Position numbers and translations under genes: made by a program. The notes below the pieces were generated by a model. That model saw only the letters and a list, made by a program, of their open reading frames with translations. It did not search any database and was not told the DNA's origin. From a bacterium (GTDB lineage Bacteria; Hydrothermota; Tepidihabitantia; Tepidihabitantales; Tepidihabitantaceae), in NCBI GenBank assembly GCA_046485285.1, contig JAWOHE010000053.1:1-13706 (forward strand): 13,706 nt of DNA. Direction: 5' to 3'. Positions 1,163 to 13,117 of the stretch are shown here, in pieces. Each line of letters begins with the position of its first letter. Positions within the stretch are counted from its first letter, which is position 1.

Positions 1163-2275
1163 ATGGTACGTTCGCGGGCGGCCGCGGGCCGCAACGTCTT
1201 CGCCGAGATCGAGGCCGGCCGGATCGGCACGGCCTGGCTGCTCGTCGGCGACAACACCCTGCTCGTGGACGAGATAATCGCCCGGCTCAGGGCTAAGGTC
1301 GTCGACCCGGACTTCGAGGCCTTCGACTACGAGTCGTGGCTGGCCGACGAGGTTTCGCCCGAGGCGTTCGAGCAGGCAATCCGGCAGATGCCGGCCGGTT
1401 CACCGCGCCGGATGGTGGTCGTCAAGGGCATCACCCGTCCGGGTTCGAGGGGTCCGGCCTATGCGCGCCAGCTCGGCGCACACGGGGTCGAGCGGATGCT
1501 GGCCGCGCTCGCGGCCGTGCCCGACTCGGCCTGCGTGGTGCTGACCGGGACACCGAAGCGGGAGTTTGCCCGGCTCGCCGGAAGCCTCGGGCTGGCGGGG
1601 GCAATCGTACCGGTGGAACAGCCCGACGCCGAGTCGCTGGCCGGGTTTGCCCGGGCCTGGGCGCGCGAGCGCGGGCTCGAACTCGAGCCCGGGGCGGCAC
1701 GCCTGCTGGTCGAGGTCGTCGGCGCGGACGCGGCGATCGTCAGGTCCGAGGTCGACAAGCTGGCGGCCGCGCACCCGACCGGCACGAAGCTGGGGCCGGC
1801 CGAGGTGAGGTCGCTGGCCGGCGCATCGCGTGAATTCACGCTGGCCGAGTACGTCGGCCGGTTCCTGCGGCGGGACGCGGCCGGCGCGCTCGAGGTCCTG
1901 CGCCGGCTCGAGGCCTGGAGCAACCCGCGCGAGATTGCCGGCGGGGTCGTCGCGTGGCTGACGAACGCGCTGGTCGACCTCGCGGCCGAGCGGGCCGGCG
2001 CGCTCGCGCCGAACCTGCGCTGGAGGGTACGCGACCATTCCCGTCACTGGCCGAGCCTGGCCGAGCTGAACCGGGTGCTCCAGGCGCTCTACCGGCTGAA
2101 CCGGGACAGCGTCAGCGGCCGGCCCGAGACGCTGGCGCGGATTGAAGCGCTGACCACCTGCGCCGCCTGCCGGCGCGACGCTGGCTACTGCGACGCGTTC
2201 GCGTTTGCGCCGCCCGGCCCGGGGGCGGAGCTGTGCATTGTGCCGGGACGGACGAGGAGGAGTCAAGATGGCTGA
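1163..2275 (+). CDS. holA: DNA polymerase III delta subunit (divergent)
   Basis: N-terminal 'WLLVGDN.LL.DE.I..LR.KVVDP.FEAFDY...', 'MP..SPRRMVVVK' and 'A..LLVE.VG.D...VRSEVDKL' match the HolA pattern. Size 370 aa; adjacent to leuS. Confidence 0.85.
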   Translation: MVRSRAAAGRNVFAEIEAGRIGTAWLLVGDNTLLVDEIIARLRAKVVDPDFEAFDYESWLADEVSPEAFEQAIRQMPAGSPRRMVVVKGITRPGSRGPAYARQLGAHGVERMLAALAAVPDSACVVLTGTPKREFARLAGSLGLAGAIVPVEQPDAESLAGFARAWARERGLELEPGAARLLVEVVGADAAIVRSEVDKLAAAHPTGTKLGPAEVRSLAGASREFTLAEYVGRFLRRDAAGALEVLRRLEAWSNPREIAGGVVAWLTNALVDLAAERAGALAPNLRWRVRDHSRHWPSLAELNRVLQALYRLNRDSVSGRPETLARIEALTTCAACRRDAGYCDAFAFAPPGPGAELCIVPGRTRRSQDG

Positions 2276-4973
2276 TTCGACCGCCGGCCGGCAGCCACCG
2301 GCCGCACCGGTGTACGGGGCCCGTGCGCTCGAGCAGCGCTGGCAGGACTTCTGGCGCGAGCGGGGGACGTTCCACACCCCCGAGCGGCCGGAGCGGAAGT
2401 ACTACGTCCTCGAGATGTTCGCCTACCCGTCGGGCGACCTGCACGTCGGCCACGCCCGCAACTACACGATCGGCGACGTCATCGGCCGATACCGGAAGAT
2501 GCTCGGCTGCGACGTTCTCCACCCGTTCGGCTGGGACGCGTTCGGCCTGCCGGCTGAGAACGCCGCGATCGCCCACGGCAACCACCCGCGCGACTGGACC
2601 TTCGCCTCGATCGAGCTGTGCAAACGCAACCTCGACCTGATGGGCATCGCCTACGACTGGGACCGCGAAATCAACACCTGCCTGCCCGAGTACTACCGCT
2701 GGGACCAGTGGCTGTTCCTGCAGTTCTACAAGCGCGGGCTCGCCTACCGCAAGGAGGCCCTGCTCAACTGGTGCCCGGGCTGTCGGACCGTGCTCGCCAA
2801 CGAGCAGGTCGTCGATGGCCACTGCTACCGGGGGACCTGCCACGCGCTGATCGAGAAGCGGAAGATGACGCAGTGGTTCCTGCGCATCACCGACTACGCC
2901 CAGGAGCTGCTCGACGGCATCGACGGGCTCGACGGCTGGCCGGACAGCGTCCGAACGATGCAGCGGAACTGGATCGGCCGGTCCGAGGGCATCGAGGTCG
3001 TCTTCACGCTCGACGCCCCGCGCGCCGCGCGGGGAAGCCGCGCCAGCGGCATGGAGCATGAAAGTCTGCTTTCCTGCCCGGGCGGCGAAGAGCCGCCGAC
3101 GAAACTGCCGGTGTTCACGACCCGGCCGGACACACTCTGGGGCGTGACGTTCCTGGCCCTGGCGCCGGACGCGCCGCTCGCCGAGGAGTTGCTCCGCGGG
3201 ACCGGGCGCGAGGCCGAGGGCCGCGAGTTCATCCGTCGGGTTCTGCTCAGGCCGGAGGTCGACCGGGTCGCCGAGGGGCTGGACAAGGAAGGCTTCTTCA
3301 CCGGCCGGCACGCGGTGAACCCGGTGAACGGCGAGCGCGTGCCGATCTACCTCGCCGACTTCGTGCTGGCGTCGTACGGGACCGGGATGATAATGGCGGT
3401 ACCCGGCCACGACCAGCGCGACTTCGAGTTCGCGCGGAAGTACGGCGTGCCGGTCAAGGTCGTCATCCAGCCCCGGCGTCGGACGCCGGGAAGCCGCGCC
3501 GCAGGCGCGGAGGAAGAGGGAGAGGACTCGTCCTGCGCTTCCCGGCGGCCGAGCCGCCGGCTTCCGGCGGCCGAGCCGCCGGTGCTCCGGCCCGAGACGC
3601 TGGAGGCGGCGTGGACCGGGGACGGGGTGATGACCGGCTCGGGCCCGTTCGACGGCACGGTCGCGGGCAAGGGCGAGGCCGGCCGCGCGGGCATCGAGAA
3701 GGTGATGGACTGGGTCGAGGCACAGGGCTTCGGCCGGCGCACGGTCCAGTACCGGCTCAAGGACTGGCTGGTCTCGCGCCAGCGCTACTGGGGCGCGCCG
3801 ATCCCGATGATCCACTGCGAGCGGTGCGGCATCGTGCCGGTGCCGGAGCAGGCCCTGCCGGTGTTGCTGCCCGAGGGCGTCACCGACTTCAAGCCGAGGG
3901 GCACATCGGTGCTGGCGTCGGTCAGGGAATTCCACGAGACCACCTGCCCGGCGTGCGGCGGCCCGGCCCACCGCGACCCCGATACGATGGACACTTTCGT
4001 CAACTCGTCGTGGTACATGGTCCGCTATGCCGACCCGCACAACGACCGGGAGCCGTTCGGCCGCGCCGCGGCCGATGCCTGGTTGCCGATCGACGAGTAC
4101 ATCGGCGGCATCGAGCACGCCACCGGGCACCTGATATTCTTCCGTTTCTTCACCAAGGTGATGGCCGACCTCGGGCTGGTGTCGTTCCGCGAGCCGTGCC
4201 GGGTGCTACACACCCAGGGGATGGTCTCGCTCAACGGAGTCACGATGTCGAGTTCGAAGAACATCGGGGTCTGGGTCGGGCCGTTCACCGCCGAGTACGG
4301 GGCGGACGCCGCGCGGCTGGCGGTGCTGTTCGCCGCGCCGCCAGACAAGGCGATGGACTGGACCGACGACCTCGTCACCGGCGTGGTGCGGTTCCTGAAC
4401 CGGCTCTGGCGGCTCTACGACGAGCACGGCGGCCGGATGAGCGAGGAGCCGCCCGACCCGGCCCGGTTCACCGCCGCGGACAGGGAGCTCTACATCCGGC
4501 TCAACCAGACTCACCGGAAGGTGATGGACGACATCGAGGCGTTCCAGTACAACACCGCCATTGCGGCGCAGATGGAGCTCCTCAACCACCTCTACGGCTT
4601 CGCGGACAAGAACTCGCCGGTCTTCGGCTTCGCGCTCGGCCGGCTGGTGTTCCTGCTCGCCCCGTTCGCGCCGCACCTGGCCGAGGAATTCCTGCACCGC
4701 GGGATGCCGGACGCCGGCTCGCTCTTCGACGAGCGGTACCCGCAGCCGGACCCGGCTTGGCTGCGGTTCGACACGGTCACGGTCCCGGTTCAGGTCGACG
4801 GCAGGCTCCGCGCCCGGCTTGTCGTCCCGCGCGGCGCGCCGGACGACGAGGTCCGCGCGCTCGCGCTCGCCGACCCAGCAGTCGTTCAGGCCCTCGGCCC
4901 GCACCCGCCGGCCCGGGTCATCGTCGTGTCCGGGCGAATGGTCAGCATTGTCAGTACAAAGGAGGTATCGTGA
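2268..4973 (+). CDS. leuS: Leucine--tRNA ligase
   Basis: MFAYPSGDLHVGH (HIGH), GWDAFGLPAENAA, editing motifs TTRPDT and MAVPGHDQRD, DWLVSRQRYWGAPIP, DTMDTF..SSWY, YIGGIEHA, C-terminal VQVDG.LR. SD GAGGAGG before ATG 2268, which overlaps the holA stop. Confidence 0.97.
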   Translation: MADSTAGRQPPAAPVYGARALEQRWQDFWRERGTFHTPERPERKYYVLEMFAYPSGDLHVGHARNYTIGDVIGRYRKMLGCDVLHPFGWDAFGLPAENAAIAHGNHPRDWTFASIELCKRNLDLMGIAYDWDREINTCLPEYYRWDQWLFLQFYKRGLAYRKEALLNWCPGCRTVLANEQVVDGHCYRGTCHALIEKRKMTQWFLRITDYAQELLDGIDGLDGWPDSVRTMQRNWIGRSEGIEVVFTLDAPRAARGSRASGMEHESLLSCPGGEEPPTKLPVFTTRPDTLWGVTFLALAPDAPLAEELLRGTGREAEGREFIRRVLLRPEVDRVAEGLDKEGFFTGRHAVNPVNGERVPIYLADFVLASYGTGMIMAVPGHDQRDFEFARKYGVPVKVVIQPRRRTPGSRAAGAEEEGEDSSCASRRPSRRLPAAEPPVLRPETLEAAWTGDGVMTGSGPFDGTVAGKGEAGRAGIEKVMDWVEAQGFGRRTVQYRLKDWLVSRQRYWGAPIPMIHCERCGIVPVPEQALPVLLPEGVTDFKPRGTSVLASVREFHETTCPACGGPAHRDPDTMDTFVNSSWYMVRYADPHNDREPFGRAAADAWLPIDEYIGGIEHATGHLIFFRFFTKVMADLGLVSFREPCRVLHTQGMVSLNGVTMSSSKNIGVWVGPFTAEYGADAARLAVLFAAPPDKAMDWTDDLVTGVVRFLNRLWRLYDEHGGRMSEEPPDPARFTAADRELYIRLNQTHRKVMDDIEAFQYNTAIAAQMELLNHLYGFADKNSPVFGFALGRLVFLLAPFAPHLAEEFLHRGMPDAGSLFDERYPQPDPAWLRFDTVTVPVQVDGRLRARLVVPRGAPDDEVRALALADPAVVQALGPHPPARVIVVSGRMVSIVSTKEVS
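3016..3097 (+). repeat. In-frame multi-hairpin insertion element, copy 1, in the leuS editing (CP1) domain
   Basis: About 27 extra residues (APRAARGSRASGMEHESLLSCPGGEEP) before FTTRPDT. DNA forms successive hairpins and shares GGGAAGCCGCGCC, TCCTGC and GGCGGC..GAGCCGCCG with copy 2. Confidence 0.7.
3472..3582 (+). repeat. In-frame multi-hairpin insertion element, copy 2, in the leuS editing (CP1) domain
   Basis: About 36 extra residues after KVVIQP. Same hairpin order and shared motifs as copy 1; the last hairpin is tandemly duplicated. Confidence 0.7.
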
Positions 4974-12343: not shown

Positions 12344-13117
12344 TCAGCCATCGGCCCGGGCGAAGTCGCAGGCGAGCAGGCTTTCGGCCGTTGCGGTTCC
12401 GGGAAGCGAATCCGGCAGTTCATCATAGACCTGGCCGTTGAGCTCCCGGCCGGTCAGGTCCTTCCGCACCCCGCCCCACTGCTTGAAGAAGAACGCCGCC
12501 CCGGCCTCCTCGCACTGCCGCCGGATGGACTGCACCCAGGACTCCTTCATCTCCCGCGCGCCCGGCCCGGACTCGCCGCCGACAATCACCCAGTGAATGC
12601 CGTCGAGCGCCAGCCGGCCGAGGTCGGCAATCAGCGGCTCGCAGGACAGGAACCGCACCGCGGCCAGGACCGCGCGCAGGTCCGCAATCCTGCTCTTGAC
12701 CTCAGGGCTTTCGACGGTCACCCCGGCCCAGACATTCTCCGGCCAGCGCGGCAGGCGCCGGGCGTAGGCCAGCATCTTCCCGCTTCGCTTCGTCAGCAAC
12801 TGGAACACGTGCCGGGGGCAGGCCCGCATCGTCTCGAACACCCGGTCGGTGAAATTGAACGGCACGTGGGTATGGAACAGGTCGGACATCGAGTTCACGA
12901 ACACCATCCGGGGCTTCCGCCACGACAGCGGCGTCCCGAGCATATGCTCGTGGAGCGTGACCCGGAATCCGTTCTTGTAGTTCGGGTTGCCCATCGCCTG
13001 CAGGCGCAGGGCCAGCCGCTTCGCGTAGCAGTGCGCGCACCCGGCGCTGATAGGGCTACACCCGGTCGTCGGGTTCCAGGTCGCCTCGGTCCATTCGATG
13101 GAGGAGTCGTAGGACAT
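12344..13117 (-). CDS. DUF5131 / phage Gp37-Gp68 family protein (three-Cys, radical-SAM-like)
   Basis: SSIEWTEATWNPTTGCSPISAGCAHCYA (Cx6Cx2C), FVNSMSDLFH, FQLLTKR, NVWAGVTVE, RFLSCEPL, IHWVIVGGESGPGAR, FFFKQWGG. Confidence 0.92.
   Translation of the reverse strand: MSYDSSIEWTEATWNPTTGCSPISAGCAHCYAKRLALRLQAMGNPNYKNGFRVTLHEHMLGTPLSWRKPRMVFVNSMSDLFHTHVPFNFTDRVFETMRACPRHVFQLLTKRSGKMLAYARRLPRWPENVWAGVTVESPEVKSRIADLRAVLAAVRFLSCEPLIADLGRLALDGIHWVIVGGESGPGAREMKESWVQSIRRQCEEAGAAFFFKQWGGVRKDLTGRELNGQVYDELPDSLPGTATAESLLACDFARADG

Follow-up and report, generated by a model that had tools for sequence, protein, structure and literature searches.

Two in-frame inserts in a bacterial leucyl-tRNA synthetase gene, very probably diverged copies of a MITE-like palindromic repeat

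Rickettsia palindromic elements (RPEs) were reportedly described by Ogata et al. in 2000. As far as they are portrayed in PMC10969869, RPEs are dispersed palindromes of 100-150 nt with tens of copies per genome and no known associated transposase; a large fraction of them lies in frame in unrelated housekeeping genes, and the extra peptide is placed at positions compatible with the fold. The same account regards them as an extreme case of in-frame insertion by miniature transposable elements with inverted repeats (MITEs), allows that similar processes may occur elsewhere, and treats in-frame selfish DNA in essential genes as a Rickettsia speciality (PMC10969869). In this study, we describe what we regard as a second clear instance, from an uncultured phylum of high GC content. 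The stretch analyzed, called the window below, is a bacterial contig of 13,706 nt (JAWOHE010000053.1), and the subject is a pair of inserts in its leucyl-tRNA synthetase (LeuRS) gene. We believe it very likely that each of the two inserts arose long ago as an in-frame copy of a mobile repeat of approximately 101 nt, MITE-like and non-autonomous, and has since diverged. The RPE properties listed above are found in this repeat as well.

The repeat also differs from RPEs, and a relationship to them in sequence is not expected. Its host belongs to a high-GC, apparently free-living uncultured lineage, whereas the RPE host is an AT-rich obligate intracellular alphaproteobacterium; 10 of its 40 loci are internal and in frame, compared with about half in the RPE account (PMC10969869); and three frames of the element are used, whereas the peptide encoded by RPEs is described there as conserved. 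Bacterial MITEs with occasional in-frame copies are known as ERIC, Correia/NEMIS, QMITE1 of Coxiella and the Anabaena MITEs (PMC10969869, PMC5896051, PMC2759123). As these sources present them, MITEs resemble the repeat in being small, without coding capacity for a transposase, with many near-identical copies, mostly intergenic or at the 3' ends of genes, and possibly in having inverted-repeat ends. Unlike the MITEs so described, each end of the present repeat is a perfect GC hairpin, its genic fraction is above typical, and neither an unambiguous target-site duplication nor a parent insertion sequence with the same ends was found. REP/REPIN-RAYT systems (Y1/HUH), as outlined in PMC3733652, share GC-rich extragenic palindromes with it, and one Y1_Tnp gene is present here; however, the unit here is approximately 101 nt with four hairpins rather than a 20-40-nt palindrome or a REP doublet (PMC3733652), it has no conserved GTAG/CGTC head, and no copy of it borders the Y1 gene. 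We regard the repeat as a new family that acts like RPEs and MITEs; the likeness is one of function, and membership by homology is not claimed. IS200/IS605-derived palindrome-associated elements resemble this repeat in carrying a hairpin at each end and in lacking an evident target duplication, but no TnpB, no TnpA beside the copies and no conserved target tetra- or pentanucleotide was recognised here. A full-text search of the literature found no description of such elements in WOR-3.

The window is contig C76 of assembly G000, which comprises 2.34 Mb in 102 contigs with 69% GC and is 88% complete. The LeuRS frame is open over 2205-4973 on the + strand, and the ATG at 2268 is the likely start of a protein of 901 aa. 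The protein carries the Pfam domains tRNA-synt_1, the editing domain PF13603 (aa 254-428) and Anticodon_1, is of the bacterial type and matches LeuRS of T. thermophilus (1h3n) with an E value of 1.6e-266. Three motifs, which we take to be the HIGH-like, the KMSKS-like and the TTRPDT editing motif, are intact. No second LeuRS-level match was found in the assembly. The features of the gene are listed below, with the evidence for each in brackets; R1 is a covariance model of the repeat, and pLDDT is the predicted local distance difference test score.

2268-4973, + strand: leucyl-tRNA synthetase gene (LeuRS), host of both inserts (translation, Pfam, 1h3n match).
3015-3101, + strand: insert 1, a probable diverged in-frame repeat copy of 29 codons, APRAARGSRASGMEHESLLSCPGGEEPPT (R1, 13-mer, empty site, pLDDT, codon log-odds).
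3016-3034, + strand: hairpin 1 of insert 1, CCCCGCGC-gcc-GCGCGGGG, with an 8-bp stem and a 3-nt loop (sequence, RNA fold).
3471-3584, + strand: insert 2, a probable diverged in-frame copy of the same repeat (R1, nhmmer, 17-mer, empty site, pLDDT, codon log-odds).
3472-3490, + strand: hairpin 1 of insert 2, CCCGGCGT-cgg-ACGCCGGG, with an 8-bp stem and a 3-nt loop (sequence, RNA fold).
3542-3582, + strand: tandem duplication in insert 2, two 19-nt copies of CCGGCGGCCGAGCCGCCGG, 22 nt apart (repeat search).

An earlier note on this DNA had claimed that the two inserts share one hairpin architecture and one reading frame, and every feature it listed was present at its place. In both inserts, hairpin 1 is followed by an identical AAGCCGCGCC; hairpins 2 and 3 come next, the latter ending in TCCTGC, and a GGCGGC-loop-GCCGCC hairpin is last. 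Both read in the LeuRS frame as ..GSRA..SC..EPP. They lie 456 nt apart in one gene, and the stretch common to both is a 34-nt direct repeat with 76% identity. The RNA folds showed the same four-hairpin layout in the two inserts, with z values of -3.5 and -2.4 against dinucleotide shuffles. Compared with the family consensus, the hairpin-1 stem of insert 1 has two paired double changes. Hairpin 1 of insert 2 overlies five host-position codons (PRRRT), and an alternative long-range helix in the same insert has arms of 16 nt at 3479-3494 and 3537-3552 that are 94% complementary. The tandem copies of insert 2, at 3542-3560 and 3564-3582, each form a terminal GGCGGC/GCCGCC hairpin. The codon log-odds were -0.18 for insert 1 and -0.28 for insert 2 versus +0.69 to +0.82 for the rest of LeuRS, and the GC content of the three codon positions (GC1/2/3) was flat in the inserts versus 0.64-0.72/0.44-0.47/0.94-0.95 in the rest of the gene. 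By these codon statistics the inserts look non-coding, which is a foreign signature.

The earlier note further suspected that short structured repeats of an undescribed family had colonised coding sequence, and named a lack of other genomic copies as a refuting result. The opposite was seen: the covariance model led to approximately 40 loci, ten of them in frame within genes. The 13-mer GGGAAGCCGCGCC, which is common to both inserts, occurred 18 times in the genome versus 0.9 expected, and the 17-mer CGCCGGGAAGCCGCGCC of insert 2 occurred 12 times versus 0.04 expected, that is, at 11 sites besides insert 2 (expected counts from an order-3 Markov model). Aligning the flanks of these word sites yielded a repeat of approximately 101 nt with four hairpins. 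Its 5' part consists of a terminal hairpin CCCGGCGGCC/GGCCGCCGGG, AAG and a hairpin CCGCGCC-TTC-GGCGCGG, and its 3' part of a purine-rich linker, a small third hairpin and a terminal hairpin CCCGGCGCG/CGCGCCGGG. A 13-nt inverted repeat (CGCCGGGAAGCCG / CGGACTCCCGGCG, 85%) lies just inside the terminal hairpins and is what the earlier reader had called an alternative helix. The outermost ends, CCCGGCG/CGCCGGG, each belong to a local hairpin as well.

An nhmmer profile built from 14 copies gave 38 genomic hits at E<1e-5 and reported insert 2 with an E value of 3.2e-5, and 19 canonical copies aligned at 84% mean column identity. The covariance model R1, built from 19 copies, gave 40 matches at 39 loci in the genome with 33-110 bits; the tally of 40 loci used here is these 39 and insert 1. 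The 29 strongest matches scored 74-110 bits, and decayed copies scored 27-61 bits. When the window was scanned with filters off, insert 2 scored 38.1 bits (3471-3561, + strand) and 32.9 bits on the - strand (3471-3584), and insert 1 scored 26.8 bits (3015-3098, E = 2.6e-4 on the window). The inserts ranked 1st and 3rd and their own reverse strands 2nd and 4th, and the best other match had 16.9 bits. The copies were clustered: 17 neighbour pairs lay within 10 kb versus 4.9 expected, a number reached in 0 of 5000 random placements, and 22 contigs were occupied versus 31 expected. Among the clustered contigs were C61 (five copies within 11 kb), C59 (four), C53 (three) and C7 (three).

A canonical copy folded into four hairpins with a minimum free energy of -72.6 kcal/mol (z = -4.4). 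In the four-hairpin structure 90.5% of the cells were paired, compared with 36-46% with slid partners. The statement that structure was conserved over sequence stood for hairpin 1, where two-sided changes occurred at five of nine pairs among the 19 family copies and the pairing was kept in both LeuRS copies. It did not gain from the rest of the element: helices 2 and 5 never vary and so give no evidence on structure conservation either way, and compensatory pairs were not found in the consensus computed by RNAalifold itself.

The LeuRS of the window formed a singleton cluster, and the next relative was 66% identical over the region; the named closest homologues were overwhelmingly labelled 'candidate division WOR-3 bacterium', and the host is probably a member of that division. 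The alignment with relatives that had been proposed to define boundaries and target duplications gave empty sites and net lengths, but no clear target duplication. Both same-genus genomes that cover the two sites (G002 and G004) have a LeuRS without either insert, and their empty sites read FTLD-RDGR-KLP at site 1 and VIQP-AGQT/EGGT-LRPE at site 2. Insert 1 occupies the place of four codons in these orthologues, a net gain of 75 nt, and the net gain at insert 2 is 99 nt (33 codons). The insertions in GcvPA (87 nt longer in this genome) and Fpg (111 nt longer) faced an empty site in four of four same-genus genomes, and the one in an aminotransferase was absent from all three same-genus orthologues found. 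All five insertions compared are thus missing from same-genus orthologues, and judged by these sequence comparisons the insertions are young relative to the genus.

Over 40 relatives, with 99 candidates per genome scored and stricter filters, R1 gave six weak matches in one same-genus genome and three in one other genus, and none at E<=0.001 in the other 38. The exact 23-mer of the right half of the element had 0 hits in genome contigs and 0 in metagenome contigs. The looser pattern GGGAAGCCGCGCC-N3-GGCGCGG matched 56 metagenome loci, two of which were related by R1 (L188 with 49.4 bits and L196 with 32.3 bits). The L188 copy is intergenic and more symmetric. The L196 copy is intergenic as well, just after a stop codon, and its first 30 nt are those of the left end of insert 2, so the hairpin variant of insert 2 is a subfamily and not an oddity that arose in situ. 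The other 54 loci look like chance or partial matches; the 11 that R1 reported at E<=0.01 scored 21-26 bits.

At 8 of the 40 loci, a codon model trained on 473 long open frames of the assembly scored both flanks as coding in one and the same sense-strand frame, which crosses the element without a stop. Two further genic loci near N-termini (aminotransferase and Fpg) were identified from translations and Pfam, which gives the total of ten. The in-frame hosts are LeuRS (twice), GcvPA, Fpg/MutM, a class I/II aminotransferase, a D-Ala-D-Ala-ligase-like (Ddl-like) ATP-grasp enzyme, a PolyA_pol/CCA-type nucleotidyltransferase, a molybdopterin oxidoreductase, an M23 peptidase and one large protein without a Pfam match. 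The GDC-P domain of GcvPA spans 57-519, across the element at 253-292; the aminotransferase domain (44-426) runs across the element at 98-124; the Pfam domain of Fpg spans the element, with 154 aa for 117 profile positions; and in LeuRS and the Ddl-like ligase Pfam domains flank it. All ten internal copies are in sense orientation; copies in general occur in both orientations relative to neighbouring genes. Three frames of the left half of the element are used, read as AAGKPRLRRG.., EAAPSARRE.. and, in LeuRS, GSRA... The sense strand of the consensus has no fixed TAA, TAG or TGA, so genic insertions would survive if their net length is a multiple of three and they fall in a tolerant surface loop. 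At least four additional copies are C-terminal read-through tails, of pyruvate phosphate dikinase, the M23 peptidase just named, a radical SAM protein of the YgiQ type and a small membrane protein; the M23 peptidase gene has two copies, one internal and one C-terminal. At the copy in C48:8345-8463, both flanks score as coding in the same antisense frame and two stops lie inside the element, which may be a disrupted gene or two abutting genes.

The surface-loop positions proposed for the two LeuRS inserts were confirmed by structure prediction and by alignment to T. thermophilus LeuRS. An AlphaFold2 model built on a 47-sequence alignment had a mean pLDDT of 88.9 and a predicted template modelling score (pTM) of 0.84. 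Exactly three segments fell below a pLDDT of 50, namely the N-terminus, 254-273 and 412-433 (model numbering is that of P0001 minus 21). The latter two fall within inserts 1 and 2, respectively, and were predicted as coil without secondary structure. In the alignment to 1h3n, inserts 1 and 2 face gaps at residues 238-241 and 363-369, which are turns. On this model, both inserts are disordered loops of the CP1 editing domain.

The mobility of the repeat is suggested by presence and absence among relatives, by the near-identity of the copies and by their clustering; beyond this, we infer that the mechanism was transposition, in what order the events took place, and that the inserts are retained in mRNA and protein. 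The element consists of a GC-rich hairpin at each end and inner inverted-repeat arms, with the second hairpin and the purine-rich linker between them. It would be mobilised in trans by an enzyme and spread through the genome, with new copies tending to land near existing ones; such local hopping would fit the clustering and the two LeuRS copies 456 nt apart. A genic element would be translated as a disordered peptide, and LeuRS would have been struck twice, in two turns of its CP1 editing domain.

Several observations weigh against this account. No transposase linked to any copy was found in the assembly; the nearby HUH/RAYT enzyme that the earlier note had proposed to look for was not seen near any copy. 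The sole Y1_Tnp (PF01797) gene of the assembly, at C44:28761-29294 (L080), has no element copy beside it, and only one CCCGGCGG octamer lies approximately 430 nt upstream. TnpB-type PF07282 was not found in the assembly, and the only GIY-YIG match, considered as a small mobilising enzyme, sits in a frame of 628 aa that we take to be UvrC-like. No convincing target-site duplication was seen at four filled/empty sites or in the flanks of 21 aligned copies; CCGG is present at both element ends and in the Fpg empty site and could hide one. Host sequence of 12-15 nt was apparently replaced at three of the four sites that were aligned as DNA: LeuRS site 1, GcvPA and possibly LeuRS site 2. No covariation was found within the family outside hairpin 1, where the helices are invariant. 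Of the two inserts, the first belongs less clearly to the family. It was missing from the nhmmer hits, its 64/101 global identity with a canonical copy equals the best of 300 mononucleotide shuffles, and its 26.8 bits would lack significance at whole-genome scale. We place it in the family on three grounds: it contains the exact 13-mer, its four hairpins come in the family order, and R1 gives it this score. The family evidence also comes from one assembly, 88% complete and in 102 contigs, and none of the sequencing runs contained more than 0.05 of the sampled words of the stretch. Two side observations concern the Y1_Tnp gene itself: it adjoins a stretch of low GC where a contig ends, and approximately 60 nt within the gene are directly duplicated, which shifts the frame of its C-terminal part.

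Some of these points bear on how the element entered its hosts. The apparent replacement of host sequence, together with an Fpg empty site that already has GCCGGG and resembles the end of the element, makes a recombination-type entry conceivable; the element would then have come in by recombination or by gene conversion from copies close by, or by templated repair of DNA prone to form hairpins, and not by transposition. The lack of both a target duplication and a transposase in our searches would suit such an entry, as would the replaced 12-15 nt and the strong clustering. However, the many unrelated insertion sites have flush 3' ends, near-identical full-length copies are present at approximately 30 loci, as for a mobilised unit, and the assembly is 88% complete while insertion sequences often remain unassembled, so we consider this entry improbable. 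No longer parent insertion sequence with the same ends was found in this 88%-complete assembly. We think still less of the idea that slippage or local duplication simply lengthened two loops of the editing domain in this lineage, with a repeat likeness that is a by-product of GC-rich low complexity. Both LeuRS loops do vary in length across the lineage with unrelated sequences, insert 2 does hold a local tandem duplication, and insert 1 is no closer globally to a canonical copy than shuffles are; but the exact 17-mer that insert 2 shares with 11 other sites is expected 0.04 times per genome, the inserts exceed all other R1 matches in the window by 10-21 bits, their four hairpins are in the family order, and their codon statistics resemble non-coding DNA. 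For insert 2, loop expansion is already largely refuted.

The earlier note had also raised an RNA-level role. On this reading, the structures would be kept for action in mRNA, such as pausing, processing or stability, or would be removed before or after translation. In its favour, two-sided changes leave hairpin 1 paired in both LeuRS copies and at five of nine family pairs, and the folds are stabler than shuffles. Hairpin retention is equally expected, however, if a DNA enzyme recognises the ends; helices 2 and 5 are invariant and uninformative, copies lie in both orientations relative to neighbouring genes, and a scan of 14 element loci and the window (48.8 kb) against Rfam 15 gave 0 matches at E<=1. 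Evidence of an RNA-level role did not emerge from the analysis, and we find such a role about as hard to credit as loop expansion. The least probable explanation, to which we give almost no weight, is that repeat copies were misjoined into LeuRS during assembly of a metagenome-derived genome. Repeats do break assemblies, and this genome is in 102 contigs, but the inserts are unique and diverged (38 and 27 bits versus 74-110 for the 29 strongest copies), the reading frame is kept, and colinear LeuRS flanks lie on both sides in one contig. In-frame copies of the MITE-like repeat are the explanation that we consider very likely.

The two loops were also compared in other LeuRS. Among the 59 closest database LeuRS, site 1 was longer than the mode in 13 of 57 and site 2 in 10 of 59, with heterogeneous sequences, and none of the 59 shared the inserts of the window. 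Site 2 in G008, which belongs to another genus, contains a nested pair of short repeats with 12 further occurrences in the same genome; a 35-nt module of this insert is also present in a short tandem array with a 31-nt period at G008:C1:3059416-3059511. Site 1 of the G018 LeuRS holds a repeat of an 8-nt unit with 26 other matches, and site 1 at locus L081 holds a palindrome of approximately 48 nt of the type GGGACATGACCCG..CGGGATCGTGTCCC. The host assembly itself has a second, shorter palindromic repeat, GGGACATGAcccg..cgggATCGTGTCCC, of 38-62 nt and mostly 41-43 nt, at 10 loci (C5, C18, C24, C25, C53, C68, C88, C99, C101), two of which were flagged in frame by the codon model. The same type is in frame in the LeuRS of two other genomes, at site 1 in L081 and at site 2 in L002 (G008). 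Database LeuRS P0019, P0028, P0043 and P0055 (WOR-3-like) have site-1 inserts rich in the peptide PQITQIT, which suggests yet another repeat family at this loop. On a joint reading, the CP1 turns would be preferred landing sites, across this lineage, for several unrelated hairpin repeats, including the 41-43-nt GGGACATGA...TCGTGTCCC palindrome. In this case the preferred sites and the compensated terminal hairpin would point to a structure-specific insertion mechanism that recognises DNA hairpins or CCGG-rich targets; alternatively, the peptides may have been recruited for tuning of editing or tRNA handling. We regard this only as a tentative and rather doubtful proposal.

The datable empty sites and the gradient from young to decayed copies make the family usable for studying how proteins tolerate random peptides and how an element chooses its sites. 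Genome annotation and structure prediction will come upon repeat-derived loops that look 'non-canonical', in aminoacyl-tRNA synthetases as in further core enzymes, and repeat-aware masking explains such loops.

The remainder of the window contains a truncated rve-type integrase/transposase at the contig end (13226-13705, - strand), for which no link to the repeat as a mobiliser was established, and a DUF5131 gene at 12344-13117 (- strand). Other neighbouring genes comprise MsrA, a HolA-like gene, GuaA, DUF3108 and a C25 (gingipain-type) peptidase of 1171 aa.

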